Origin: a virus
Strand: one strand, 5' to 3'
Length of the DNA stretch: 61,496 bases
UHGV virus genome: UHGV-0350099
The notes beneath the pieces are model-generated. The model made no database searches and was not told the origin of the DNA. It saw only the letters and a program-made list of their open reading frames with translations. This document shows, piece after piece, positions 1-29,075 of the stretch; positions within the stretch are counted from its first letter, which is position 1; every line of letters begins with the position of its first letter. The translations under genes were made by a program, and so were the position numbers.

Positions 1-3000
1 GCGTCGTCTGCCAGTGCCGCGTCAACAAGTGCCGGGCAGGCCTCAGCCAGTGCCACCGCCGCCGGAAAATCGGCAGAAAGCGCCGCATCATCCGCTTCAA
101 CAGCCACAACGAAGGCTGGCGAAGCCACTGAACAGGCCAGCGCAGCAGCGAGGTCTGCTTCCGCAGCGAAGACATCCGAAACGAACGCGAAAGCGTCGGA
201 AACCCGTGCAGAATCCTCAAAAACGGCAGCCGCATCGTCCGCCAGTTCGGCAGCGTCATCGGCATCATCGGCGTCTGCTTCAAAAGATGAGGCGACCAGA
301 CAGGCGTCAGCAGCGAAGAGCAGCGCCACGACGGCATCCACGAAGGCGACAGAGGCAGCTGGCAGTGCGACGGCGGCAGCTCAGAGCAAAAGTACGGCGG
401 AATCCGCGGCAACGCGCGCCGAGACAGCAGCTAAACGGGCAGAGGATATTGCATCCGCCGTGGCGCTTGAGGATGCAAGTACGACGAAAAAGGGGATAGT
501 ACAGCTCAGCAGTGCGACCAACAGCACATCTGAAACGCTTGCCGCGACACCGAAGGCAGTTAAAGCAGCGAATGACAATGCGAATGGCAGGGTACCATCT
601 AACCGAAAAGTTAACGGGAAAGCACTGACTGCGGATATAACATTAACACCGAAAGATATTGGCACTTTAAATTCAGTAACGATCTCTTTCTCTGGCGGGG
701 CAGGGTGGTTCAAACTGGCAACGGTTACCATGCCACAAGCGAGTTCCATCGTTTACATCGCATTGATTGGTGGCGCTGGTTACAACGTCGGCTCCCCACA
801 TCAGGCAGGCATTTCAGAACTGGTTCTACGAGCAGGCAATGGAAACCCCAAAGGGATTACAGGTGCTTTGTGGAAGCGTACAGCTGTCGGATTAACGAAT
901 TTCGCCTGGATCAACACATCCGGCGATACATATGATATTTACGTTGAGATTGGCAATTATGCGACTAGTGTAAATATCCATTGGGATTGTACTGCAAATG
1001 CGACAGTTTCTATTTATACATCGCCAACATATTCAGCGAGTAAGCCTTCCAGCGTTACCGATGGTGTTGTTTATACGATGTATAGCACACATCAGAAACC
1101 GACGCCGTTAGATATTGGAGCACTGCCAACAACCGGAGGAACAGTTTCAGGTCCGTTGTCTGTTACAGGTGGATTAACTGGTTCATTGAATGGTAATGCA
1201 AGTACAGCCACGAAATTGCAGACGGCAAGATCTATCGGTGGAGTTGTTTTCGACGGTTCTGCAAATATTAACCTTCCAGGTGTAAACACTACGGGTAATC
1301 AGAACACCACTGGTAATGCTGCAACTGCTACAAAACTACAGACAGCGCGTACAATCAACGGTGTTAAGTTTGATGGTTCTGCGGACATAACGCTGACTCC
1401 TGCGAACCTTGACGTATACAGCAAAAGCGAAATAGACAATAAAAAAGGGATGAGAAAATACACTTTTTCAGCGCCTGCAAATGCAGTAAGCGGTAAGTGG
1501 TATCCTATAGTCTTTCGCCGATCTGGAGGCAGTACCGATGAATTAGCCTCACGAGTTGTGATAACTACTTATTCCTCAGCTGGCGGATACGCCATGAATA
1601 ATTGTGAATTTAATGGGTTTGTTATGCCTGGCGGTTGGTCTGATCGCGGTTCATATGCGGCTGGTTTTTTCTCAATATATTCTACTGCTGAGCGAGCTAT
1701 ACACTCGATTATTTCAAGTGTGAAAGATGACGATTTGTGTAGTGTATTTTACGTTGAAGCCAGAGCATTCCCTATCAAGATATTTGCTGAGGAGGGCTTG
1801 AACGTAATTGTTCCAACGGCTGATTATGCAGTTGGTCAAACCACTTATAAGTGGGGGGCAACTGATCCTTTATCAGAAAGTACGAATGCACAGATAATTT
1901 TGGACTTTAAAAATGGACGAGGTTATTACTGTTCACATCCATTTATTTCAAGTCTTTCAGGAAATGCTGCTACAGCAACGAAATTGCAGACTGCAAGAAC
2001 TATCGGCGGCGTGGCCTTCGATGGATCTGCGAACATAAATTTGCCTGGTGTAAACACGGCAGGTAATCAGAATACAACGGGCAACGCGGCTACTGCTACG
2101 AAGTTGCAAACAGCGAGAAACATCAATGGTGTTAAGTTTGATGGCTCAGGCGATATCAACATTAATACACTGGTATCTCGTGGCCAAGTTACGGCGTTAA
2201 GTGGCTCTACTCAGGGTACTGCTGGTATTCAAATGTATGAAGCATATAGCAATAATTACCCAACATCATTCGGCAATGTTCTGCATATGAAAGGGGCGAG
2301 TGCTGCTGGTGAGGGCGAGTTGCTTATTGGCTGGAGTGGTACAAGCGGTGCTCATGCTCCGGTTTATGTTCGTTCACGCCGTGATACTTCGACAGCGAAC
2401 TGGTCTGGCTGGGCGCAGATCTACACAACTGCTCATAAACCCACAGCGAAAGATGTTGGGGCCGCGCAAGCGTTTAGCGCGTCTTACAGCACAGGGGCTG
2501 GCAATTGGACTACCGCTGAATTTATCGCATGGCTGAAGGAGCGTGGTGCTTTCGAAGTGCCGTACTGGATGATGAAGGGTTCCTGGTCATATGCCGACAA
2601 TAAAATTATCACTGATACAGGTGTCGGCAATATTTGTCTTGCTGGTGCGGTTATCGAGGTTTTAGGTCACGAAGGCGCAATGACCATCCGAGTTACTACG
2701 CCTACAACGACAACCGGTGGTGGGATTGCCAGTGCTCAGTTCACCTATATTAATCACGGTAGCGCGTATGCCCCTGCCTGGCGCAGAGATTACAACACTG
2801 CTCTCAAACCTACTGCGGCTGATGTCGGTGCGCTGCCGATTTCTGGCGGGACAATGAATGGTGTGCTGACGCTGCAAAATGTGAGTCAGCCTCTCAAGAC
2901 GCCGGGTGGCGGCATTCTGGCAAATGATGGAAATTTATACATCAATAAGTCAGGATTTGCAGGCTGGATTGATGCGCTGTTTTTGAAGAACAGCGGCGGT

Positions 3001-4026
3001 ACTCTGACTGGAAACCTGCGTTTGTCTGCTGACAATGCCTCCATTGTCTGCGGTAACAATGGGGATATTGGCTTCATCAAAAAACAGGGCTACCCAGGCG
3101 CAATCGTGACTGGTTCGGCAACTAAGTTCATGATTATGCGTAGTAATGCGGCCACGAATATTTCGGCTGCAAATACGCTCACGGAAGTAATGTCCATCCA
3201 GCCAACCTCAAATCGTGCCGACTTCGTAGGTGAGGTGGTTTCGCATTCGGCAAATGCGTTACGCGCGGTTTACGGGAACTACGGCTTCTTTATTCGCAAT
3301 GATGGCGGCACAACTTACTTCCTGCTGACTGCTTCTGGCGATAAATATGGCAGCTGGAACACGTTACGCCCATTGTCCATAAACAACGCAAGCGGTGCAG
3401 TTTCAATGGGGAATGGCTTGAGCGTTGGGGGAGGGGTGAATGTCACGAGCGGAAATATCCGAATCCCGACGTCGAGCACATCGTGGATCGACATGAGGAA
3501 CAATGCCGCTCTGTCTAACAGTTCTGCGGTTGCCACTTCCTCTGCATCGGCCATTATTCGTCAGGAGCACGCCGATCGTCATTATTTTGTTGGTGGTTTA
3601 GGTAACTCTCAGTTCGGATTCTACATGATTAACAAGTCACGAACTGCGAACGGCACGGATGCGAACGCATACCTCCAGAATGATGGCACTTGGGTTTGTG
3701 GCGGTAATGGCAACTTTAATGACGTTTATATCCGCTCTGACCGTCGTAGCAAACGCAATATTCGCAAGATTGAACGGGCGCTCGACAAGCTGGATCGGAT
3801 CGAAGGTGTTCTCTACGAGATTCAGGTCTGTGACCGGTATGAGCAGTCTGGCGGCCTCATCGCTCAGGACGTCCAGAATGTTCAGCCTGAACTGGTAACG
3901 GTTGACCATAACGATCAGTCAGGAGAGCCTCGTCTGCGTCTTAACTACAACGGCGTTATCGGCATGTTGGTCGAGGCTGTCAAAGAGCTGCGCGAGGAAG
4001 TGCGCGAACTGAAGGCAAAAATGTAA
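1..4026 (+). CDS. Tail fibre protein, 5'-partial (frame 1 is open from base 1); C-terminal S74-type intramolecular chaperone domain
   Basis: No stop in frame 1 from 1 to 4026; Ala/Ser-rich N-region with KTSETNAKASE-like motifs; repeated GNAATATKLQTAR blocks; C-terminal SDRRSKRNIRKIE...LVEAVKELREEV resembles autoproteolytic chaperone domain. Confidence 0.8.
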   Translation, partial: ASSASAASTSAGQASASATAAGKSAESAASSASTATTKAGEATEQASAAARSASAAKTSETNAKASETRAESSKTAAASSASSAASSASSASASKDEATRQASAAKSSATTASTKATEAAGSATAAAQSKSTAESAATRAETAAKRAEDIASAVALEDASTTKKGIVQLSSATNSTSETLAATPKAVKAANDNANGRVPSNRKVNGKALTADITLTPKDIGTLNSVTISFSGGAGWFKLATVTMPQASSIVYIALIGGAGYNVGSPHQAGISELVLRAGNGNPKGITGALWKRTAVGLTNFAWINTSGDTYDIYVEIGNYATSVNIHWDCTANATVSIYTSPTYSASKPSSVTDGVVYTMYSTHQKPTPLDIGALPTTGGTVSGPLSVTGGLTGSLNGNASTATKLQTARSIGGVVFDGSANINLPGVNTTGNQNTTGNAATATKLQTARTINGVKFDGSADITLTPANLDVYSKSEIDNKKGMRKYTFSAPANAVSGKWYPIVFRRSGGSTDELASRVVITTYSSAGGYAMNNCEFNGFVMPGGWSDRGSYAAGFFSIYSTAERAIHSIISSVKDDDLCSVFYVEARAFPIKIFAEEGLNVIVPTADYAVGQTTYKWGATDPLSESTNAQIILDFKNGRGYYCSHPFISSLSGNAATATKLQTARTIGGVAFDGSANINLPGVNTAGNQNTTGNAATATKLQTARNINGVKFDGSGDININTLVSRGQVTALSGSTQGTAGIQMYEAYSNNYPTSFGNVLHMKGASAAGEGELLIGWSGTSGAHAPVYVRSRRDTSTANWSGWAQIYTTAHKPTAKDVGAAQAFSASYSTGAGNWTTAEFIAWLKERGAFEVPYWMMKGSWSYADNKIITDTGVGNICLAGAVIEVLGHEGAMTIRVTTPTTTTGGGIASAQFTYINHGSAYAPAWRRDYNTALKPTAADVGALPISGGTMNGVLTLQNVSQPLKTPGGGILANDGNLYINKSGFAGWIDALFLKNSGGTLTGNLRLSADNASIVCGNNGDIGFIKKQGYPGAIVTGSATKFMIMRSNAATNISAANTLTEVMSIQPTSNRADFVGEVVSHSANALRAVYGNYGFFIRNDGGTTYFLLTASGDKYGSWNTLRPLSINNASGAVSMGNGLSVGGGVNVTSGNIRIPTSSTSWIDMRNNAALSNSSAVATSSASAIIRQEHADRHYFVGGLGNSQFGFYMINKSRTANGTDANAYLQNDGTWVCGGNGNFNDVYIRSDRRSKRNIRKIERALDKLDRIEGVLYEIQVCDRYEQSGGLIAQDVQNVQPELVTVDHNDQSGEPRLRLNYNGVIGMLVEAVKELREEVRELKAKM

Positions 4027-4092
4027 TCAAGGTGAATGGTGAGGGGCCACCCTCACCAATTCAGGATATTCACATCAAAAAGGAGATTAGAT

Positions 4093-4875
4093 GTGCCAAT
4101 TGTCGGTGTTCCCGGTTGGATTGGGTCTTCGGCTGTCAGTGTGACAGGCCAGAGATGGATGAGTGCGGCTCGAACGGCGGTGCAACTGCCAGCGGCTGGT
4201 TCAATGTCTCAAATGGCCGGGCGATCTAAAGAAGTTCAGTACAGCATCGGTGCGAATCATAACTACAACAAAGACACACTGATCAACTATTTAAAATCCC
4301 AGGGGGCGACGCCAGTCGTTGTTACCATTACAGGGGATCTGGTGTCGTCCAGTAGCGGCGTGCCATGTTTAGATTTCCCGAGTTCACTTACCAACTCTTA
4401 TATCAGCCTTGTAATCAACGCAGGTGTGACTGTCTATGGACGCGGTGGCAATGGTGGTAGTAACGCTGCCGGTGCTGCTGGTGGTAACGCAATTAATAAT
4501 GGCATCGGTACACGCTTGCGTATTACGAATAATGGTGCAATCGCTGGAGGTGGTGGCGGCGGTGGCGGCGGTAACAGGGGTCGACTAGTATTTGGTGGTG
4601 GCGGTGGGTGCCCATTCGGTGCTGGTGGGTCTTCCTCTCATATGAGTTCCGGTGCAACTGCTGGTACTATTTCCACTCCTGGTAAGGGATCTGTTGGTGA
4701 GGGGTCTCTTAGTGCATATACAGGCGGTTCGGGTGGTAATGTCGGTGCTGCTGGAGGAAGATGTAATACTCAAGGTAACGGTACAGAATATAACGGCGGA
4801 GCAGCTGGTAAAGCTGTTACTGGTAATGCTCCAACTTGGACTAAAGTTGGAGCAATTTACGGCGCTCATGTGTAA
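4093..4875 (+). CDS. Glycine-rich protein, possible tail fibre tip/receptor-binding or fibre-associated protein
   Basis: ORF frame 1; start moved to GTG 4093 after RBS AAGGAG (4079-4085) because ATG 4036 lies inside a hairpin; long poly-Gly tracts; position directly after tail fibre. Confidence 0.4.
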   Translation: MPIVGVPGWIGSSAVSVTGQRWMSAARTAVQLPAAGSMSQMAGRSKEVQYSIGANHNYNKDTLINYLKSQGATPVVVTITGDLVSSSSGVPCLDFPSSLTNSYISLVINAGVTVYGRGGNGGSNAAGAAGGNAINNGIGTRLRITNNGAIAGGGGGGGGGNRGRLVFGGGGGCPFGAGGSSSHMSSGATAGTISTPGKGSVGEGSLSAYTGGSGGNVGAAGGRCNTQGNGTEYNGGAAGKAVTGNAPTWTKVGAIYGAHV

Positions 4876-4949
4876 GTACTTACCTACCAAGTGTGGGCGT
4901 TTTATGATATAAATCCGCCATCCCGATTTGACTTTTCACGGAGGAAAAC

Positions 4950-5273
4950 ATGTCGAACGAGATGGCGGGCGTTACAACAGAGCAAGTTGAGCGTATTGCC
5001 GCGATCGTTGCTCGGGAGGTTGTTGGCAAATTAGGTAAAGAGCTACGTGAAGAAATTGGCCAGGAGGTCAATGATCAGCTGAAAACCTACTTTGGTGATA
5101 TGACCCCGGCGCAACATAGTATTCAACACTCCAATCTGGACAAACTCCTTAACCGGTTAGATTCCATCTCAAGTGGGTTCTTTGGCGGCATTGTTTCTAA
5201 AATAACGTCGTTCATTATTACCGCACTGCTTTTGGGGTTAGCCGCGTATGGCGTAAAAAGTGGACTGCAATAA
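4950..5273 (+). CDS. Small protein with C-terminal transmembrane helix; possible holin
   Basis: 107 aa, single hydrophobic C-terminal segment ITSFIITALLLGLAAYGV; sits immediately upstream of putative endolysin and spanins. Confidence 0.3.
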   Translation: MSNEMAGVTTEQVERIAAIVAREVVGKLGKELREEIGQEVNDQLKTYFGDMTPAQHSIQHSNLDKLLNRLDSISSGFFGGIVSKITSFIITALLLGLAAYGVKSGLQ

Positions 5274-5286
5274 CAGGAGATCAAGG

Positions 5287-5979
5287 ATGAAAACTCCGAG
5301 AGGCATTCGTAATAACAACCCTGGCAACCTCGACAAAGGTTCGCCGTGGCAGGGGCTAATCGACAACCCTGCCGAACCGCGCTTTTGCACGTTTAAAGAC
5401 CCTGTTTGGGGGATTCGTGCGCTGGCGGTGACTCTAATTACCTACCACGACAAACGTCGCGCAAAAGACGGCTCAAGTATCGATACCATTCGTGAAGTTA
5501 TTGAACGTTGGGCACCGCCGAATGAAAACAATACTGACGCCTACATTAATGAGGTGTCTAAAGCCGTTGGTGTAACCGCAGACATGATTATCGATCTGCA
5601 TGATTACGACATTCTTCGACCTTTGGTTGAGGCAATCATTCGCCATGAGAATGGGCGAGGTCCGCTAAAAACGCTGAACACCTGGTATGCGGCAGAAGTT
5701 ATTGAGGAAGGTCTGCGTCGAGCTGGCGTTGTTAAGCCGGCGAAAACCGTGAAGGCTGTTCCTGTAACTAAAGAAACCGCAGGCGCAACTGTTACAGCAG
5801 GTATTGGTCTGGCGCAGCTGGCCGATGTTATGCCGCAGGTTTCCGCTGCTATGGATAAAGCACAAGGTCATATCTCTAGCGGGGATACAGTACGCATCAT
5901 CTTCGGTATTGCCACTATTGTTGTGGCAGGATTCATTGCCTGGTCGCAGGTAAGAAAACACCAGAAAGGGATGGTCTAA
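5287..5979 (+). CDS. Putative endolysin / cell-wall hydrolase (by context), C-terminal hydrophobic segment
   Basis: RBS AGGAG then ATG 5287; lies between putative holin and Rz/Rz1-like pair; no catalytic motif recognised with certainty. Confidence 0.4.
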   Translation: MKTPRGIRNNNPGNLDKGSPWQGLIDNPAEPRFCTFKDPVWGIRALAVTLITYHDKRRAKDGSSIDTIREVIERWAPPNENNTDAYINEVSKAVGVTADMIIDLHDYDILRPLVEAIIRHENGRGPLKTLNTWYAAEVIEEGLRRAGVVKPAKTVKAVPVTKETAGATVTAGIGLAQLADVMPQVSAAMDKAQGHISSGDTVRIIFGIATIVVAGFIAWSQVRKHQKGMV

Positions 5980-5980
5980 T

Positions 5981-6232
5981 ATGCTAGGCAGCCTGATGAC
6001 AAAGCTAAAAGTTGCTTTGATTACGCTGGCTGCCGTTCTTTTCGTTCTTGTCGGCGCTTACACGATGGGCGGGAATGCGGCGCGACGAGCAATGGAAGAG
6101 AAGGCAAAACAGGAAGACAGAAAACGACTTCAAAACACAGTGAAAGTGGTGAATGAGACGAACAGTGAAATACGTCAGAAAGATGCTTCTGCCATTCATC
6201 GTGAGCTGCATGATAAGTGGATGCGTCATTAA
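5981..6232 (+). CDS. i-spanin-like (Rz-like) protein
   Basis: N-terminal TM helix LITLAAVLFVLVGAY followed by charged coiled-coil-like region; next gene overlaps in another frame. Confidence 0.5.
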   Translation: MLGSLMTKLKVALITLAAVLFVLVGAYTMGGNAARRAMEEKAKQEDRKRLQNTVKVVNETNSEIRQKDASAIHRELHDKWMRH

Positions 6233-6368
6233 GCCACAAACCGCTAGCGTGTTGTTCTGCGATGGCGCTGAACCTATTTATATCAGCAATGACGATGTAA
6301 TGACCGAAGAAACCGAACGCCAAATCCTTTTTCACAATACGATGGGAGAGAGAGTTTGCGGTTGGTGA
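6153..6368 (+). CDS. o-spanin-like (Rz1-like) lipoprotein, overlapping the i-spanin gene
   Basis: Signal peptide with lipobox MISGC; starts inside 5981-6232 in a different frame, classic overlapped spanin architecture. Confidence 0.55.
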   Translation: MRRTVKYVRKMLLPFIVSCMISGCVIKPQTASVLFCDGAEPIYISNDDVMTEETERQILFHNTMGERVCGW

Positions 6369-6400
6369 TGTCGAAGTTCCCCTCAAATGAGGGGGACACA

Positions 6401-6922
6401 TTATTCTTCGAACAATTTTTCGATAGATTTTGTTGGATAGAACAAAGAACGATCGTTGTTACCAACCAGCTGGATAAAGCCCAAACTTTTATAAAACGCC
6501 CTGGCTTTATCGTTCAACGCCTCAACGAAAAGCCCATGAATGCCTACCGCAAGAGATGCATTGTACACAACACGCATTGCGTGAGTTACAAGCATTGAGC
6601 CAAGCCCCTGACCTTGAAGAGATTTGTCCAAAGCCAGTCTGCCTAAAGTGATACTTGGGACATTCCGATAAGGCACTTTCTTTTGCTGACTCTTTGAAGG
6701 TAAGGTTTCTTTCTCAAAGCAGCTGCCTGACAAAGTGTAATAACCTAATACCTTTGGTATTTCTTCTTTAGTGCAAAGCACATAAGCGCGAAGAATTTTT
6801 CCTTCATGCTGTCTTTTTAAGTGGTTGGTCAAAAATGCGTTTAGTGACTCTTCGCCGCAATCAAAACCGTTTAGATCATAATCGTTCTCTCCAGAGAAAA
6901 TCTCGATCGTCGTATTGCTCAC
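6401..6922 (-). CDS. GNAT-family acetyltransferase toxin (TacT-like)
   Basis: 173 aa; acetyl-CoA motif LGRLALDKSLQGQGLGSML; immediately downstream of a DUF1778-type small protein on same strand. Confidence 0.7.
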   Translation of the reverse strand: MSNTTIEIFSGENDYDLNGFDCGEESLNAFLTNHLKRQHEGKILRAYVLCTKEEIPKVLGYYTLSGSCFEKETLPSKSQQKKVPYRNVPSITLGRLALDKSLQGQGLGSMLVTHAMRVVYNASLAVGIHGLFVEALNDKARAFYKSLGFIQLVGNNDRSLFYPTKSIEKLFEE

Positions 6923-6929
6923 GAGTAAA

Positions 6930-7199
6930 TTACTCCATGCTTTTCAGACGATTGGCAGCTCGTTTCAGCTTGTCGTTCGGTGCCGGAGGATTGCTTATAG
7001 CATCCATAACCAGATTCCAGGACTCTTCACTTAGAACCAGTCTACGGTGTTGCTCTATCACCTTCACGGCACGTTCGGATGCACTGCTAACCATGAACTG
7101 GGTAATGCTCTGGTTAGACATTGCGGCAGCTTCCTCGATGATGCTTTTATCGTCATCGGTTAATCTCAAATCGATGCGCTGCTTTTTCAGTGCGGACAT
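6930..7199 (-). CDS. RHH/DUF1778-type antitoxin (TacA-like)
   Basis: 89 aa; RIDLRLTDDDKSIIEEAAAMSNQSITQFM pattern typical of DUF1778 antitoxins; 7-nt gap to GNAT gene. Confidence 0.7.
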   Translation of the reverse strand: MSALKKQRIDLRLTDDDKSIIEEAAAMSNQSITQFMVSSASERAVKVIEQHRRLVLSEESWNLVMDAISNPPAPNDKLKRAANRLKSME

Positions 7200-7209
7200 G
7201 TGTACCCCC

Positions 7210-7290
7210 TGATGGCCGGTGATGTAGGAAGGCCATCATTGCTCTCTATTTAAACTGAGTTTTCGACTCAAAGGTTATTTAACTGGGCTA
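7210..7290. promoter_or_regulatory. Inverted repeats upstream of the antitoxin gene (candidate autoregulatory operator)
   Basis: GATGGCC-N13-GGCCATC at 7210-7236 and perfect palindrome TGGGCTATAGCCCA near 7275-7290. Confidence 0.3.
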
Positions 7291-7467
7291 TAGCCCATTG
7301 CGTATGTGTCATCAAATTGTGTACGGCAATTTACCGTACTCGTAATATAGAGATGATTGTCACTTTTTTCAACAGACAAATGAAAACAGTTACTAGCAAT
7401 AGGCAATAACAACCTACTAAATAACCTTTACACCGCAGCCGTAGGCATTTAGGCTATATCACATATA

Positions 7468-7484
7468 AGAAAACAAGTTGTTTC
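7468..7484. promoter_or_regulatory. AAACAAGTTGTTT palindrome upstream of parA
   Basis: AGAAAACAAGTTGTTTC about 35 nt before parA start. Confidence 0.5.
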
Positions 7485-7518
7485 AGACGATAATTATATA
7501 CGCAAAGGGAACTCTCCA

Positions 7519-8187
7519 ATGACCAAGATCTTTGTGGTTGGCGGCACAAAGGGCGGGCCTGGCAAATCCACTGTTGCCCAGCAAATTGCCGTTTGCCTGA
7601 AAGTCAAAAAGAAGAAGAAGGTTTATATCACTGATATAGATATTCAGCGCACGACAACGAGCTGGTGTGAAGACCGTCGACAGAACGAAGACCTTGAGCT
7701 GATTCCTTTTGCATACGTTCAGGATGACATCATTAAGCACCTAAAATCGCTTCAGGGTAGAGCTGAGTATGTAGTGGTAGATGCTGGTGGCTTCGACTCC
7801 GAAATTCAGCGACAAGCGATGCTGATGGCTGACGTTATCATTATCCCGCTGCGTCCTAAGCGTCGTGATTTGAAATCTTTACGTGACATCGATCCTATTA
7901 TCGACAATGTTCGCAATGTAAACGATAAAGTGAAGGTCCGCGCGGTCATGAACCAGTGCCCGGCTTTGCCATCACAAGTGTCTCGCATTCTGGCGGCTAA
8001 AGAGATTGTTGAGACGTTTGGCATCGAGTCTGCGCCAGTCAATCTATATAACCGCAACGTCTATGATGATGCGGAAGAGTCTGGTCGTTCTATCTTTGAA
8101 ATGACCGGTAGCGAGCGCGACAAAAAGGCGGAAGCCGAGTTTGAAGAATTTGTAGATTATCTGTTGAGTCTGGAGGAAGAAGAATAA
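7519..8187 (+). CDS. parA: ParA/Soj-family partition ATPase (small, type Ib-like)
   Basis: Deviant Walker A GGTKGGPGKST at N-terminus; 222 aa without N-terminal HTH. Confidence 0.8.
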   Translation: MTKIFVVGGTKGGPGKSTVAQQIAVCLKVKKKKKVYITDIDIQRTTTSWCEDRRQNEDLELIPFAYVQDDIIKHLKSLQGRAEYVVVDAGGFDSEIQRQAMLMADVIIIPLRPKRRDLKSLRDIDPIIDNVRNVNDKVKVRAVMNQCPALPSQVSRILAAKEIVETFGIESAPVNLYNRNVYDDAEESGRSIFEMTGSERDKKAEAEFEEFVDYLLSLEEEE

Positions 8188-8546
8188 TGTCCATGAAAAT
8201 GGGTGACCTAGCAAAGCGCAAAGAGCCTGATGCACCGGCTAAGAACACAACTCCTTTGCGCCAACCAGTCAGACCACAGGGACGCCCGACTCGTGGCAAA
8301 GAGAAAATTAAAAGCCGCACGATGTCACTGGAAGACGAATACTTCGAACTGCTGGAGATGATGAAGTTCATCCCTCGCTTCGAGAAGTTCACCCGTTCTG
8401 ACGTGATTCGCGCAGCCATTTTCCATCTGGCAGAGAAGTCACCGCAGGAAATCGAGGACATCGTGAAACTTAACGAGGCGATCACTGCTGCCGATGTCAC
8501 GATGCGTACCGATGAAATTAAACGCGAGTTAATGAAGAAAGGTTGA
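8187..8546 (+). CDS. Small partition/centromere-binding protein partner (ParG/RHH-like)
   Basis: 119 aa; start overlaps parA stop (TAATG); basic N-terminus, C-terminal region compatible with ribbon-helix-helix. Confidence 0.45.
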   Translation: MSMKMGDLAKRKEPDAPAKNTTPLRQPVRPQGRPTRGKEKIKSRTMSLEDEYFELLEMMKFIPRFEKFTRSDVIRAAIFHLAEKSPQEIEDIVKLNEAITAADVTMRTDEIKRELMKKG

Positions 8547-8558
8547 TATAAATCTCTA

Positions 8559-8594
8559 AGGCTGGTCTGCATTGGACAGCCTTAGAAATATTTC
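8559..8594. terminator. Hairpin between convergent genes (bidirectional terminator candidate)
   Basis: TAAGGCTG-N12-CAGCCTTA inverted repeat between parB-like (+) and 8607-9680 (-). Confidence 0.35.
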
Positions 8595-8606
8595 GTTCTA
8601 TGAAAG

Positions 8607-9680
8607 CTATTCGTAGTTAAGCTCACCGAACAGACTGAACATCAAGTCACCATCCAAAATTTCAAAGGGCAACTCGACATACTCATCCTTATGTCTCGGA
8701 ATTGCGTTGCCGTCGTTAGGGGCATTCTTGGTATAACCTTTTACATGTTTACCGTTTTCTTTTGTATACGGCAGCACGACAATTCGACCGTGATTTTTTG
8801 AAATGATAGTTCCTTCTTTCCAGAGCGTATTGCCTCTTGAGGTGGTTTCGCTTTCGCTAGCAACTTTAACACTCCAACCTACCTGATTTTTGTCCTCAAA
8901 CCAGAAAACAAAGTTGCCAACAACCAGTACCTTTTGCCCATTCCTGAGAGCTTCATCCAGCATTCTTTTTACGCTGGCGAGTTGCAGTAACCGGTTAGCA
9001 CGCGGCAGAAGCATTGAGCGAATAGTCGCTTTTGTTTTTCCCCAATGTGCAGCGCCTGATAAACCAAAACCTCTGGCTATGCGTTCTTGGTAGCAGATCT
9101 TCGCTGTCTTAGCTTTGTTGTTATATGAACATTCCCAAGTGTTAGGAGCAACGAGTTGAAGTGAAACTTGGAATTTGGGAAGAAAAACAAAATGTAAGTA
9201 AGGCATCTCGCTTAGCACGTCAAAAAGGGGTTGACGCAAAGTTTCGTAATCTGGGTTAATTATTAACTCATTTAATGTCACTCGCGGATCGTTGGCGTGT
9301 GCCTTAATTGCTTCGTTGAGCATTATATGCTCTTCATCCATGAGACGTGATTTGGCTTTGAGTGCTTTGTCAACTTTCAAACGCAATGACTTCTTTTGAA
9401 ACATAGATAGAGGAAGTTTTTCAATGTCAAAGCTCACGTTTTTATTCAGCTCTAATGCCGCTTTTCTTGCTTCAGGATAGTTATCGTAGTCGTCATCAAA
9501 AGCGTGGTTTGGCATACCACGATCAACATATCGCCGATACCAAGCAAGGGTTCCATCATTACGGAGTTTCAGACAGAACATCGACCATTTATTCCGTTCA
9601 TATTTAGGCTGAGGCCAAAAAGCCAGTTCGGGAAGGCCATATCCTGGAAGTCTATTCATGCGCATGGTGACAATATCCAC
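8607..9680 (-). CDS. Hypothetical protein in AT-rich accessory segment
   Basis: 357-aa ORF on minus strand; lower GC than flanking replication genes; no motif recognised. Confidence 0.5.
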   Translation of the reverse strand: MDIVTMRMNRLPGYGLPELAFWPQPKYERNKWSMFCLKLRNDGTLAWYRRYVDRGMPNHAFDDDYDNYPEARKAALELNKNVSFDIEKLPLSMFQKKSLRLKVDKALKAKSRLMDEEHIMLNEAIKAHANDPRVTLNELIINPDYETLRQPLFDVLSEMPYLHFVFLPKFQVSLQLVAPNTWECSYNNKAKTAKICYQERIARGFGLSGAAHWGKTKATIRSMLLPRANRLLQLASVKRMLDEALRNGQKVLVVGNFVFWFEDKNQVGWSVKVASESETTSRGNTLWKEGTIISKNHGRIVVLPYTKENGKHVKGYTKNAPNDGNAIPRHKDEYVELPFEILDGDLMFSLFGELNYE

Positions 9681-9922
9681 GAGGCTAAAACACTGATTCT
9701 AACATGATCTCCCTTGATAAATCTGTCAATGACATAGCATCTGGGGTTGGAGTCAAATTATGTTGTTCTTGGTATCCATTAGGAGCCTGTTTCTGTATAT
9801 AAATAATAAGTAACTTATTAAATATATACGGAAGCAGGTCTTTTAAAAGACACCACCAGACCAACTCCCTTCCGTTTTCACTTCCAAAAACTGACACCAG
9901 TCGCTATCATCCGTTCATTGTG

Positions 9923-9944
9923 ATAAGTAAGTAGCTACCTACCA
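9923..9944. promoter_or_regulatory. Palindromic intergenic motif GATAAGTAAGTAGCTACCTACC
   Basis: Member of dispersed TAAGTA/TACTTA family. Confidence 0.4.
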
Positions 9945-9954
9945 GGTGAGACAC

Positions 9955-10695
9955 ATGAGCCAAATCTTTTTCGATACCATCGACAACGACCAGTACGACT
10001 TCATGACAGAGTGGAATACCGCTGTTATGGACAAGTGGGTCGCTGAAAACATTGGTTTGTCGCGCTGTAAAGATGAGGCTGAACTCTTCGAGACGAAGTG
10101 GTTTGATTACCGCGACATGCATCCTCTGATGGCCACCTGTCTATTTACGGAGGCATACAAACGTCAGTACTCAAATATCATGCTGACGCACGGTCGCGAA
10201 CACTTTGAAACAGCTCCGTTCACCACCGGGTTAAAACGCCTGCCTTATCAGGAGTTGTCGACTGCCAATAAAACGTCGCTATGGAAAGCACGCCAGTTTG
10301 CTGACCGCTATTGCTGCTCATACGACTACTTTATCTCCACCGTTCTTTCCGCAGCTGCACGACGACTGTGGGACAAGCTGCCGCGTCCGCAGCATTTGTG
10401 GCAGCCAGAACTGATTGAGATATTTGAAGAGAAATTAGCCAGACGCGCAACAACCCGTCTGGATGACTCTCTCGTTAGCTTTAAGCATATGGGAGACATG
10501 CAGTTCAACCCGATTCAGGAAAGCTATTTTGGGTGGATTCTGGAGCGTTTACGCACCATCCCCCGCAGCAAGCGCATACGCGCAATTTTCTCCGCTATCT
10601 GGTTAATGGAAATCGTTCCAGAGCGCCTTATTTCCGCCCACTTTCCAGAAGAACTGGAAGAAGCACGGCGGTTTATTGATCCCCTATCTAATTAA
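9955..10695 (+). CDS. Hypothetical protein
   Basis: ORF frame with ATG 9955 after palindromic intergenic motif; no motif recognised. Confidence 0.5.
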   Translation: MSQIFFDTIDNDQYDFMTEWNTAVMDKWVAENIGLSRCKDEAELFETKWFDYRDMHPLMATCLFTEAYKRQYSNIMLTHGREHFETAPFTTGLKRLPYQELSTANKTSLWKARQFADRYCCSYDYFISTVLSAAARRLWDKLPRPQHLWQPELIEIFEEKLARRATTRLDDSLVSFKHMGDMQFNPIQESYFGWILERLRTIPRSKRIRAIFSAIWLMEIVPERLISAHFPEELEEARRFIDPLSN

Positions 10696-17477: not shown

Positions 17478-17552
17478 GATGGTGTAGCTCAGCGGTAGAG
17501 CAGTTGGCTGTTAACCAACTGGTCGGTGGTTCGAATCCACCCACCATCGCCA
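17478..17552 (+). tRNA. tRNA-Asn (anticodon GUU)
   Basis: Hand-folded cloverleaf: acceptor GATGGTG/CACCATC, D-stem GCTC/GAGC, anticodon loop CTGTTAA, T-loop GGTTCGAATCC, 3' CCA. Confidence 0.8.
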
Positions 17553-17557
17553 ATTTA

Positions 17558-17644
17558 GGGGAGTTAGTCCGTAGGGGCAGCGGGGTAGACTGTAAATCTA
17601 CTGTCATTGCGACTCGGGTGGTTCGACTCCATCACTCCCCACCA
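17558..17644 (+). tRNA. tRNA-Tyr (anticodon GUA), long variable arm
   Basis: Acceptor GGGGAGT/ACTCCCC, anticodon loop CTGTAAA, T-loop GGTTCGACTCC, CCA end; architecture like bacterial tRNA-Tyr. Confidence 0.7.
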
Positions 17645-17648
17645 AATT

Positions 17649-17724
17649 GCCGGTTTAGCTCAGTTGGTAGAGCGCCTGCCTTGTAAGCAGGATGTCAGCG
17701 GTTCGATCCCGTTAACCGGCACCA
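17649..17724 (+). tRNA. tRNA-Thr (anticodon UGU)
   Basis: Acceptor GCCGGTT/AACCGGC, D-stem GCTC/GAGC, anticodon arm CCTGC-CTTGTAA-GCAGG, T-loop GGTTCGATCC, CCA. Confidence 0.75.
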
Positions 17725-17732
17725 ACACAACA

Positions 17733-17944
17733 GGTAAGAGCATTGGGCGAATCGGCGATACTGACCCACAAGCCCGTAAATCGATAGAGTCAGACCAGTG
17801 CTCTTACCGTTGTGAGGAAGTGCAGCTCTTTGAAGCAACCAGAAGATAAGCATCTGGCTTCACAACACAACGATAAGATCATTACGGTTAATCGTCGTTC
17901 ATGTGCACAATGACTGGTCGAAAGGTAGTGATCTTACCGTTGTG
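17733..17944 (+). ncRNA. Three further long hairpins of the same family between tRNAs
   Basis: GGTAAGAGCATTGG/CCAGTGCTCTTACC (17733-17807); GTTGTGAGG/CTTCACAAC (17809-17857); CACAACGATAAGATC/GATCTTACCGTTGTG (17856-17944). Confidence 0.35.
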
Positions 17945-18044
17945 ATGAATGCACAGGCTGATGTGCCGCAACTACAGTAGTGCGCGCTTTGCGGGGCTTG
18001 CTACAACCCTGTGTCGGAGTTCAGCACCGACCATCACAATAGCT

Positions 18045-18131
18045 GGAGAGTAGGGAGCATGGTGCTCAAGCGGTCTTGAAATCCGTCCCATTGTGCAAAC
18101 GATGATGGTTCGATTCCATTACTCTCCGCCA
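18045..18131 (+). tRNA. tRNA-Ser(UGA)-like, long variable arm, possibly degenerate
   Basis: Acceptor GGAGAGT/ACTCTCC + CCA, anticodon loop CTTGAAA, T-loop GGTTCGATTCC; anticodon stem has a T-T mismatch and D-arm is atypical. Confidence 0.45.
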
Positions 18132-28372: not shown

Positions 28373-28644
28373 AAGAATTATGGCGCTTGTTGAGGAAGTC
28401 ACTCCTCTTACGCACTTTGTTTTGCCATGCCGGCAGTTAGCTTCTGCCTTTGACTATTCATGCGGCAACCCCGCATTTCGCCACAATGGGCAATTCACTT
28501 TTATGGAATAAACTGGCCGTTGTGTCGATTTAATTAGCATGGCCTTACCATGCTAATTTATTCAACTTGTACAATCCTACAAATCTATCCACTCAGGCTT
28601 ACACCGTCTTCGTTATTGTAGAAATGAGGATCATCAGCGTTGAA

Positions 28645-28860
28645 TCAGCTTAGAGCAACGACATTTGCTGCTGCTGGGCCTTTAGCACCATTCTCGATAG
28701 AGAATTCGACCTGCTGGCCTTCTTCCAAAGTGCGGAAATTATTACTCTGAATTGCCGAAAAATGTACAAAAACATCTTTACTGCCATCAGCAGGAGAAAT
28801 AAAGCCAAAGCCTTTATCAGAGTTAAACCATTTTACTAAACCAGTCATTTTATTAGACAT
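28645..28860 (-). CDS. cspA: Cold-shock protein, CspA family
   Basis: [38 protein letters not shown]... with RNP motifs KGFGFI and VFVHF; start trimmed to MSNK. Confidence 0.9.
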
Positions 28861-29075
28861 AGATATTACCTTCTTAATTTTGTGAGCCACATAGTGCGGC
28901 GAGAATTTGATCTGTATAGATTGGGACTTACTTAGGCACTTAAGGAGGAGACTCACGAAGAAGGGAAATCAGAAGATAACACTGAACTGAGACTGCTTTA
29001 CTAAAACTGCTTACATAAGGTCTGTCTTGCAAACCAACGATGCTATTAACGCATACCCCTTCTTTTCATGCAACC
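28861..29075 (-). promoter_or_regulatory. cspA-type promoter and long 5' UTR
   Basis: On minus strand reads TTGCAT -35-like, TTAAT -10-like and a cold-box-like TGCAAGACAGACC; about 180-nt leader as in enterobacterial cspA (recalled from memory). Confidence 0.5.

Follow-up and report, generated by a model that had tools for sequence, protein, structure and literature searches.

Fiber and Adhesin Genes at the Locus

The virus genome UHGV-0350099, a stretch of 61,496 nucleotides (nt) referred to here as the window, starts inside a long tail-fiber gene that is followed by a gene for a glycine-rich protein of the Gp38 type. Together, these genes very probably form the host-recognition device of an SSU5-like Escherichia coli phage-plasmid, consisting of a modular, trimeric side fiber and a separate, monomeric tip adhesin that act by the mechanism proposed below. 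The features of the region are listed in Table 1. Both genes already carry RefSeq annotations, and their outline is also annotated for SSU5.

Positions 1–6300 of the window are 99.9% identical, across their full length, to p1 of E. coli WEM25 (NZ_CP061531.1), a circular, non-mobilizable IncFIB plasmid of 108,197 base pairs. Similar plasmids number in the hundreds among the plasmid-collection matches, in Escherichia, Enterobacter, Salmonella and Citrobacter. The best-matching phage records are the SSU5-like CMS-2020a and Cyrano and Salmonella phage SSU5 itself, and PhiR41_1 is another near relative deposited as a phage. The gene order (tail protein J, fiber, adhesin, holin, endolysin, spanin, then ParA) is that of SSU5. 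This identity and gene order mark the window as part of an SSU5-like phage-plasmid, and the features of that class are all found: a plasmid of ≈100–115 kb with tail genes, fiber, lysis cassette, ParA partition and synteny with SSU5. The host element is, on this comparison, a temperate, siphovirus-type phage-plasmid of E. coli.

Reading frame 1 is open from the first base of the window through a TAA codon ending at position 4026. In NZ_CP061531.1 the fiber open reading frame (ORF) is intact (positions 5104–10026), starts 897 nt upstream of window base 1 and encodes 1640 amino acids (aa); the two fibers differ by a single residue. Residues are numbered here from the window edge, so that window residue n is residue n + 299 of the full-length protein. 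The fiber matches PHROG tail-fiber families and, above the curated cut-offs, the Pfam families Phage_fiber_2, Gp34_trimer and Peptidase_S74. ORFs on the minus strand beneath it are short (at most 122 aa) and lie opposite a strongly supported gene. The PLSDB gene table for NZ_CP061531.1 lists a coding sequence for the last 133 fiber codons only (“tail fiber domain-containing protein”), even though the frame is unbroken at the DNA level; the short entry is an annotation gap and not a biological feature.

The extreme C-terminus of the fiber, its last 96 aa, is an S74 domain. Peptidase_S74 (PF13884) matched residues 1246–1300 over positions 1–58 of the 58 in the profile (42.1 bits, cut-off 22; E value 1.1e-10), and the match starts with the motif SDRRSK (residues 1246–1251, nt 3736–3753). 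The C-terminal 122 aa aligned with gp37 of phage S16 from the solved gp37–gp38 complex (PDB 6F45_A, E value 2.4e-13), placing SDRRSK opposite SDRRIK of S16 gp37 and SDERLK of 8JOV. Within VYIRSDxRxKxN, all residues other than the x positions are invariant in six aligned fibers, including gp37 of the T-even phage Bas45. Self-cleavage is predicted between R1245 and S1246 (nt 3735/3736), with S1246 and K1251 as the catalytic dyad. Such a Ser-Lys dyad fits the pattern known for the Peptidase_S74 family, including endosialidase endoNF and T5 pb1. From homology to solved trimeric fibers, we infer that the fiber is trimeric. In most T-even gp37 proteins, the self-cleaving C-terminal chaperone is shed, after which one gp38 monomer attaches (PMC9569957; PMC6851490).

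The next gene, gp38, lies on the same strand directly 3′ of this fiber gene with its predicted self-cleaving chaperone domain, the fiber stop being at 4026 and the gp38 start at 4093. Its product matches Pfam GP38 (PF05268; E value 2.7e-69, 233.8 bits, cut-off 25), Gp38_N (PF21721; E value 1.2e-14, 54.5 bits, cut-off 25), phrog_2056, annotated “tail fiber protein; host specificity” (E value 2e-91), and S16 gp38 (PDB 6F45_D; E value 2.2e-46, residues 8–258 of 260), the last of which settles its membership in the Gp38 family. Glycine makes up 23% of the protein and 34% of its last 144 aa, with a longest run of nine, and ten GG-containing runs, G9 and G5 among them, align with S16 and Bas45. Judged by these matches, the protein is a receptor-binding tip protein of the T2/S16 Gp38 type.

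GTG 4093 is most likely the start codon of gp38. RefSeq places the start at this position in relatives, and all Gp38 homologs compared begin there with M[PA]IVGVPGW (MPIVGVPGW or MAIVGVPGW). A start at ATG 4036 was rejected: it would add 19 unsupported residues, the Gp38_N match begins only at ORF residue 22, and there is no usable Shine-Dalgarno spacing.

An earlier note on this DNA, made from the letters alone, had described a tail-fiber gene open from the window edge and carrying an S74-type chaperone with SDRRSK at its C-terminus, and then a gene for a glycine-rich protein. All of these points were confirmed, the Ser and Lys of the motif being in place and the glycine-rich ORF ending at 4875, and the suggestion that the glycine-rich product is a distal tip or adhesin can now be put more specifically, as membership in the Gp38 family.

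Table 1. Features of the fiber–adhesin region and of the adjoining lysis cassette (window coordinates).
Feature	Position	Strand	Evidence or remark
Side/long tail-fiber gene, 5′-truncated by the window edge	1–4026	+	Last 1341 of 1640 codons plus stop
Ala/Ser-rich shaft, lambdoid Stf type	1–477	+	Translation; 1–581 is 94–96% nt identical to many lambdoid coliphage side-tail-fiber genes
Phage_fiber_2 motif KGIVQLSSATNSTSETLAATPKAVK	478–597	+	PF03406, E value 4.6e-20, aa 160–199; aligns to Mu fiber S, PDB 5YVQ
Globular “WFKLATVTMPQ...GGAGYNV” domain	634–1101	+	44% aa identity to T-even Bas45 gp37 794–937; 43% to HdSG1 fiber
Connector block 1, two 40-aa GNAxTATKLQTAR...FDGS units	1189–1389	+	First 151 nt 150/151 identical to lambdoid phi458
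Inserted fiber module, absent from SSU5	1405–1950	+	95% aa identity to HdSG1; Matches only PHROG families with no assigned function
Connector block 2, two 40-aa units	1957–2157	+	First 151 nt 150/151 identical to HdSG1; similarity stops at ≈2107–2115
Globular domain homologous to Mu S′ (variable part of the G(-) fiber)	2446–2829	+	PDB 8JU3_A 199–328, domain E value 2.7e-51
Distal shaft resembling Mu S and the T4 gp34 C-terminal trimerization domain, with the mature tip at its end	3160–3735	+	PF21446 Gp34_trimer, E value 2e-26
S74 intramolecular chaperone domain, aa 1246–1341	3736–4023	+	PF13884, 42.1 bits
Closest blastn match, phi458	1–1434		92% nt
Closest blastn match, Nonagvirus vB_EcoS_HdSG1	1405–2131		96% nt (96.2%)
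Closest blastn match, SSU5	2016–2849		84% nt
Closest blastn match, SSU5	3592–4010		93% nt
Shine-Dalgarno AAGGAG	4079–4084	+	8 nt upstream of GTG 4093
Gene for the Gp38-type adhesin (260 aa)	4093–4875	+	PF05268, PF21721, phrog_2056, PDB 6F45_D
gp38 attachment domain and beta-helix part, plasmid lineage	4093–4425	+	92–93% nt to phage-plasmid gp38; 65.5% to Bas45
gp38 polyglycine-rich receptor-binding cassette, T-even type	4426–4852	+	94.6% nt to Tequatrovirus PaulHMueller (Bas45); 62% to C. freundii plasmid gene
gp38 end, plasmid type again	Last few dozen bases		Lower identity to PaulHMueller (Bas45)
Holin-like protein, 107 aa	Within 4950–6368		phrog_5093
Endolysin	RefSeq start ≈5287		phrog_873
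Rz-like spanin	5981–6232		
ORF overlapping the spanin	6153–6368	+	Lipobox-like N-terminus (…SCMISGC…); possibly Rz1

Repeat Blocks and Modular Make-Up of the Fiber

A repeat search of the fiber gene matched positions 1192–1388 to 1960–2156 with 77% identity at an offset of 768 nt, in the same frame. When aligned by codons, the two blocks (Table 1) each span 201 nt, or 67 codons, and are 75% identical in nt and 90% in aa sequence. The chance of at least 151 matches among 197 ungapped positions anywhere in 5 kb is ≈1e-44. Each block consists of two 40-aa units, so that GNA[AS]TATKLQTAR occurs four times in the fiber, at residues 398, 438, 654 and 694. A BLOSUM62 self dot-plot recovered all four unit offsets with scores of 106–150, compared to a maximum of 43 in shuffled sequences, and the protein self dot-plot also revealed a second junction motif, KPTxxDxGALPxxGGT, at residues 361–390 and 931–960. 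Tandem Repeats Finder returned nothing over positions 1–6500; the blocks are therefore dispersed and not tandem.

The earlier note had reported two blocks of about 75% identity and ascribed them to recent duplication. The blocks stand, with small corrections of their coordinates, as does the self-similarity expected on a dot-plot, but the recency does not. A recent tandem or segmental duplication inside the fiber gene would account for two copies in the same frame, 768 nt apart and with 90% aa identity. However, 38 of the 50 nt differences between the blocks fall at third codon positions, and the Nei-Gojobori distances were 0.085 for nonsynonymous (dN) and ≈3.8, i.e., saturated, for synonymous (dS) sites. 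Over their first 151 nt, the blocks match each other at 113 positions, whereas block 1 matches phi458 and block 2 matches HdSG1, members of different phage families, at 150. Furthermore, the module between the blocks is 96% identical to that of Nonagvirus HdSG1, and the number of units differs among relatives (two in SSU5, four in tandem in HdSG1). The saturated dS, the third-position differences and the closer copies in different phages rule out a recent duplication, which we regard as the least credible of the explanations considered in this study.

The near-identity to phi458 and that to HdSG1 both break off sharply within the second TATKLQTAR unit. In SSU5 and in the Citrobacter and Enterobacter relatives, only one connector block occurs, its 5′ flank being equivalent to the region before block 1 of the window and its 3′ flank to the region after block 2. 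In HdSG1, the same module is followed by the four tandem units and then by a “GGAGY” domain, which in the window fiber precedes block 1. The foreign copies of each block and the single block in the relatives indicate that the extra block came with the foreign module (1405–2131) by recombination at the connector. On the simplest reading, the 40-aa unit (GNAATATKLQTAR...FDGS) would be a conserved connector common to the fibers of unrelated phages, which together with the KPTxxDVGA motif would serve as a homologous crossover site for module exchange. The “duplicated block” would then be a connector pair flanking one acquired module.

The Mu S′-homologous domain is common to the window fiber and SSU5, and the distal shaft matches residues 258–445 of PDB 5YVQ_A (E value 1.8e-54) as well as the T4 gp34 entries 4UXE and 5NXF. 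Lambdoid, Nonagvirus, Mu-like, SSU5-like and T4-like phages are all linked in the fiber and gp38 pair, and the breakpoints are resolved to a few bases. By these alignments, the fiber is a string of globular modules linked by conserved connector motifs and swapped among unrelated phages.

Phage Cyrano (positions 2104–6655) has the first 1383 nt of the window fiber in common at 92% identity. This phage lacks gp38, its holin gene coming directly after the fiber; the kinds of fiber end therefore differ within the SSU5 group.

The Gp38 Mosaic and the Distribution of the Family

The gp38 gene is itself composite (Table 1). The left breakpoint lies inside the sequence for VTVYGRGGNGG, a glycine-rich motif. 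In the receptor-binding part, the window protein shares 136 of 144 aa with Bas45, compared to 94–95 of 144 with the Citrobacter and Enterobacter plasmid proteins, the front ends of which are nearly identical to that of the window Gp38. To judge from these identities, gp38 is a chimera of a plasmid-lineage attachment part and a cassette common to virulent T4-like phages.

A match to Gp38 was found in 758 records of the phage collection. Among the matches listed, the carriers are nearly all genomes of ≈155–178 kb, the exceptions being SSU5-like records and one 86-kb Hafnia phage. The plasmid collection yielded 87 records with a Gp38 homolog, including 40 from Enterobacter, 30 from Escherichia and 13 from Citrobacter; NCBI labels these homologs “receptor-recognizing protein”. 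A 2025 paper describes Gp38 as a unique receptor-binding protein of Straboviridae, the T4-like (T-even-like) phages. The window gene is carried instead by an SSU5-like phage-plasmid, and carriage by Straboviridae is a habit of the Gp38 family and not a structural criterion. A search of open-access full texts found no paper on Gp38 adhesins of SSU5-like elements or phage-plasmids.

In plasmid pLAO59 (NZ_OP242238.1, typed IncY; positions 4552–4935), the chaperone domain of the fiber is T-even-like (SDARLKSNFAPIKNAL, compared to SDIRLKSNFKPIENAL in Bas45) and not of the SSU5 type, which hints that parts were exchanged with T4-like phages a second time, independently.

Proposed Mechanism and Receptor

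Building on the observed family membership, motif conservation and mosaic boundaries, we propose the following mechanism, in which cleavage, capping and OmpA specificity are the inferred parts. Three fiber chains would fold with the aid of their own C-terminal S74 domains (residues 1246–1341), which would then cut themselves off at R1245|S1246 by means of Ser1246 and Lys1251. One Gp38 would cap the exposed end of the trimer through its N-terminal helical attachment domain. Hypervariable loops on the C-terminal polyglycine-II sandwich of Gp38 would bind a receptor in the outer membrane, with OmpA as the most likely one. The model for the last two steps is S16, in which gp38 sits as a monomer on the end of the trimeric gp37, attached via three tryptophans of its N-terminal helices that insert in gp37 pockets, and binds the receptor through loops of the polyglycine-II sandwich (PMC6851490).

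Several points weigh against this proposal. Cleavage, incorporation into virions and receptor binding are all predictions from sequence. Directly upstream of the cleavage site, the shaft resembles Mu S and not T-even gp37. Of the three anchoring tryptophans, Trp9 and Trp22 are kept, whereas Ser37 takes the place of the third, and the attachment geometry of Gp38 may differ as a result. Residue 173 (codon 4609–4611) is Cys, in GGGGGCPFG, while Bas45, four other plasmid homologs and S16 have Arg. Lastly, single-sequence AlphaFold2 prediction of Gp38 gave no usable model (predicted local distance difference test score, pLDDT, 31.4), so that the polyglycine-II fold is taken from the 6F45_D alignment. 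The third Trp position is occupied by Ser or Asn in all five plasmid homologs examined, while Trp is kept in SSU5 and Bas45. Its loss is a lineage-wide variant and not a sequencing error, and Cys173 is a lineage-specific substitution in a conserved glycine-rich motif.

The glycine-rich protein might instead be an assembly chaperone only, like T4 gp38, with the fiber's own tip binding the receptor. The missing third anchor Trp would fit this, and some homolog records are labeled “distal long tail fiber assembly catalyst”. However, the protein is a member of the T2/S16 adhesin family whose glycine-rich motifs and hypervariable loops all align to 6F45_D, and T4 gp38 is very different in sequence (PMC6851490). 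The cassette is also only 65% identical in aa sequence across plasmids of different host genera while the front end is 92–100% identical, as expected of a receptor binder. We therefore consider a role in assembly alone very improbable and retain the tip adhesin.

OmpA is our best guess for the receptor, and we favor it modestly, because the window Gp38 resembles those of Bas45 and RB49-type phages and Gp38 proteins that are close relatives share a receptor (PMC12032242). Bas45 is dependent on OmpA (PMC8594841). The window Gp38 is 82–85% identical to gp38 of RB49, JSE and Phi1, and RB49-type phages are OmpA-dependent on K-12; some O-antigens can also be used, which counts against OmpA as the sole candidate (PMC9569957).

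It is rather unlikely that, with the architecture left as above, an O-antigen, a lipopolysaccharide core structure or another porin serves as the receptor in place of OmpA. Certain O-antigens are alternative primary receptors of RB49-like gp38 (PMC9569957), SSU5 is called “core lipopolysaccharide-specific” in the title of a cited paper, and eight substitutions, R173C included, separate the window cassette from that of Bas45. Nevertheless, the receptor-binding domain is 94% identical in aa sequence to that of an OmpA-dependent phage, and Gp38 phylogeny predicts the receptor (PMC12032242). The receptor of SSU5 itself is uninformative here, since its adhesin has a different, non-Gly-rich C-terminal domain.

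We also considered the possibility that the fiber and gp38 are relics, unused on a plasmid that has lost the ability to form infectious particles. The nearest PLSDB record lists only the C-terminal fragment of the fiber as a coding sequence, and SSU5-like phage-plasmids gave no lysogens on 18 strains (PMC9600943). Yet the two ORFs run unbroken for 4.9 kb and 0.78 kb, with conserved catalytic and structural motifs, near relatives (CMS-2020a, Cyrano and PhiR41_1) were deposited as phages, and SSU5-like phage-plasmids have been shown to be induced and packaged (PMC9600943). Disuse is thus improbable, and a functional host-recognition device is the preferred interpretation.

Neighboring Genes

A lysis cassette lies directly 3′ of gp38, at positions 4950–6368 (Table 1). 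The endolysin ends in a hydrophobic C-terminal stretch, IIFGIATIVVAGFIAW, and its homologs are labeled “membrane protein” by PGAP. The minus strand at 6401–7199 encodes a toxin of the GNAT acetyltransferase family together with a DUF1778 antitoxin; the pair is of the TacT/KacT type, and its counterpart in Cyrano is annotated KacT. A ParA-like partition ATPase at 7519–8187 fits plasmid maintenance of the prophage. Further along, four tRNA genes (Asn-GTT, Tyr-GTA, Thr-TGT and Ser-TGA) are clustered at 17478–18131. The Rfam cspA thermoregulator was matched over its full length on the minus strand at 28620–29038 (187.6 bits, gathering score 78), implying a cold-shock-protein gene with a regulatory 5′ leader on the phage-plasmid. 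An NCBIfam search of the fiber, gp38, holin and endolysin gave no match, and a promoter scan of 3900–6500 found no sigma-70-like site and only weak terminator-like hairpins.

Possible Recent Exchange of Receptor-Binding Parts

The main interest of the locus lies in the visible swapping of parts with unrelated phages, virulent T4-like ones included. The known understanding of how such fibers work is unchanged; the architecture is known, and it is the host lineage that has been under-discussed. Most useful among the products of the analysis are a corrected view of the repeats, recombination boundaries at base level and a testable prediction of the receptor. The 40-aa GNAATATKLQTAR connector and the glycine-rich motifs of gp38 provide a natural example of two elements of a recombination “grammar”.

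The receptor prediction bears on E. coli phage-plasmids of a widespread class that includes carriers of resistance genes: adsorption to OmpA is expected here, and the specificity should be reprogrammable by exchange of the cassette at 4426–4852. The exchange tract is ≈95% identical in nt sequence over 427 nt, compared to 65% in the flank. It is an evenly balanced question whether the polyglycine cassette was recently exchanged between virulent T4-like phages and temperate SSU5-like phage-plasmids, with the two-Trp attachment variant holding a T-even OmpA-type determinant on a siphovirus fiber. If this is true, phage-plasmids resident in Enterobacteriaceae are a standing reservoir and mixing vessel of T-even adhesin alleles, and the Gp38 family is not “unique to Straboviridae”, as recent literature has it.

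Comparison with Known Systems

The closest functional parallel is the fiber tip of T2, T6 and S16 (PDB 6F45). The window has the same order of fiber and then adhesin, an S74-type C-terminal domain with SDxRxK and an adhesin of the Gp38 family, with N-terminal attachment domain, beta-helix and a putative polyglycine-II sandwich; the receptor-binding cassette itself is 94.6% identical in nt sequence to that of a Tequatrovirus. Unlike those systems, the carrier is a temperate siphovirus-type phage-plasmid and not a Straboviridae myovirus, and the shaft is a mosaic of lambda Stf, Mu S and Nonagvirus parts in which the likeness to gp37 is confined to the last ≈100 aa (42%). The third anchoring Trp of Gp38 is replaced by Ser (Ser or Asn in plasmid homologs).

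In genome type and synteny, the nearest system is SSU5, with fiber SSU5_021 and adhesin SSU5_022. The fiber N-terminus, Mu-S′-like domain, tip and chaperone domain are 85–96% identical in aa sequence to SSU5_021, and the N-terminal 38 aa of the adhesin are 58% identical to SSU5_022. However, the SSU5 fiber contains a single connector block and no HdSG1-like module, and the SSU5 adhesin, at 178 aa, has an unrelated, non-Gly-rich C-terminal domain.

With the endosialidase and T5 pb1 (Peptidase_S74), the window fiber shares Pfam membership, the C-terminal position on a trimeric fiber, the Ser-x4-Lys motif and a C-terminal helical tail. It differs in that a separate adhesin is expected to cap the end left by cleavage, which would not itself be the binding tip. 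Phage Mu S/S′ (PDB 5YVQ and 8JU3) provides homologs of two internal fiber segments (S′ 199–328 and S 258–445). The Mu fiber, however, terminates in a receptor-binding domain of its own, for the folding of which a separate Tfa protein is responsible, whereas the Mu-like shaft of the window leads to the S74 domain and Gp38, with no Tfa gene after it. As far as sequence can tell, the device would work like a fiber tip of the T2/S16 type, having the sequence features of both the Peptidase_S74 and the Gp38 family save one conserved anchoring Trp, on a carrier that is not a T-even phage.

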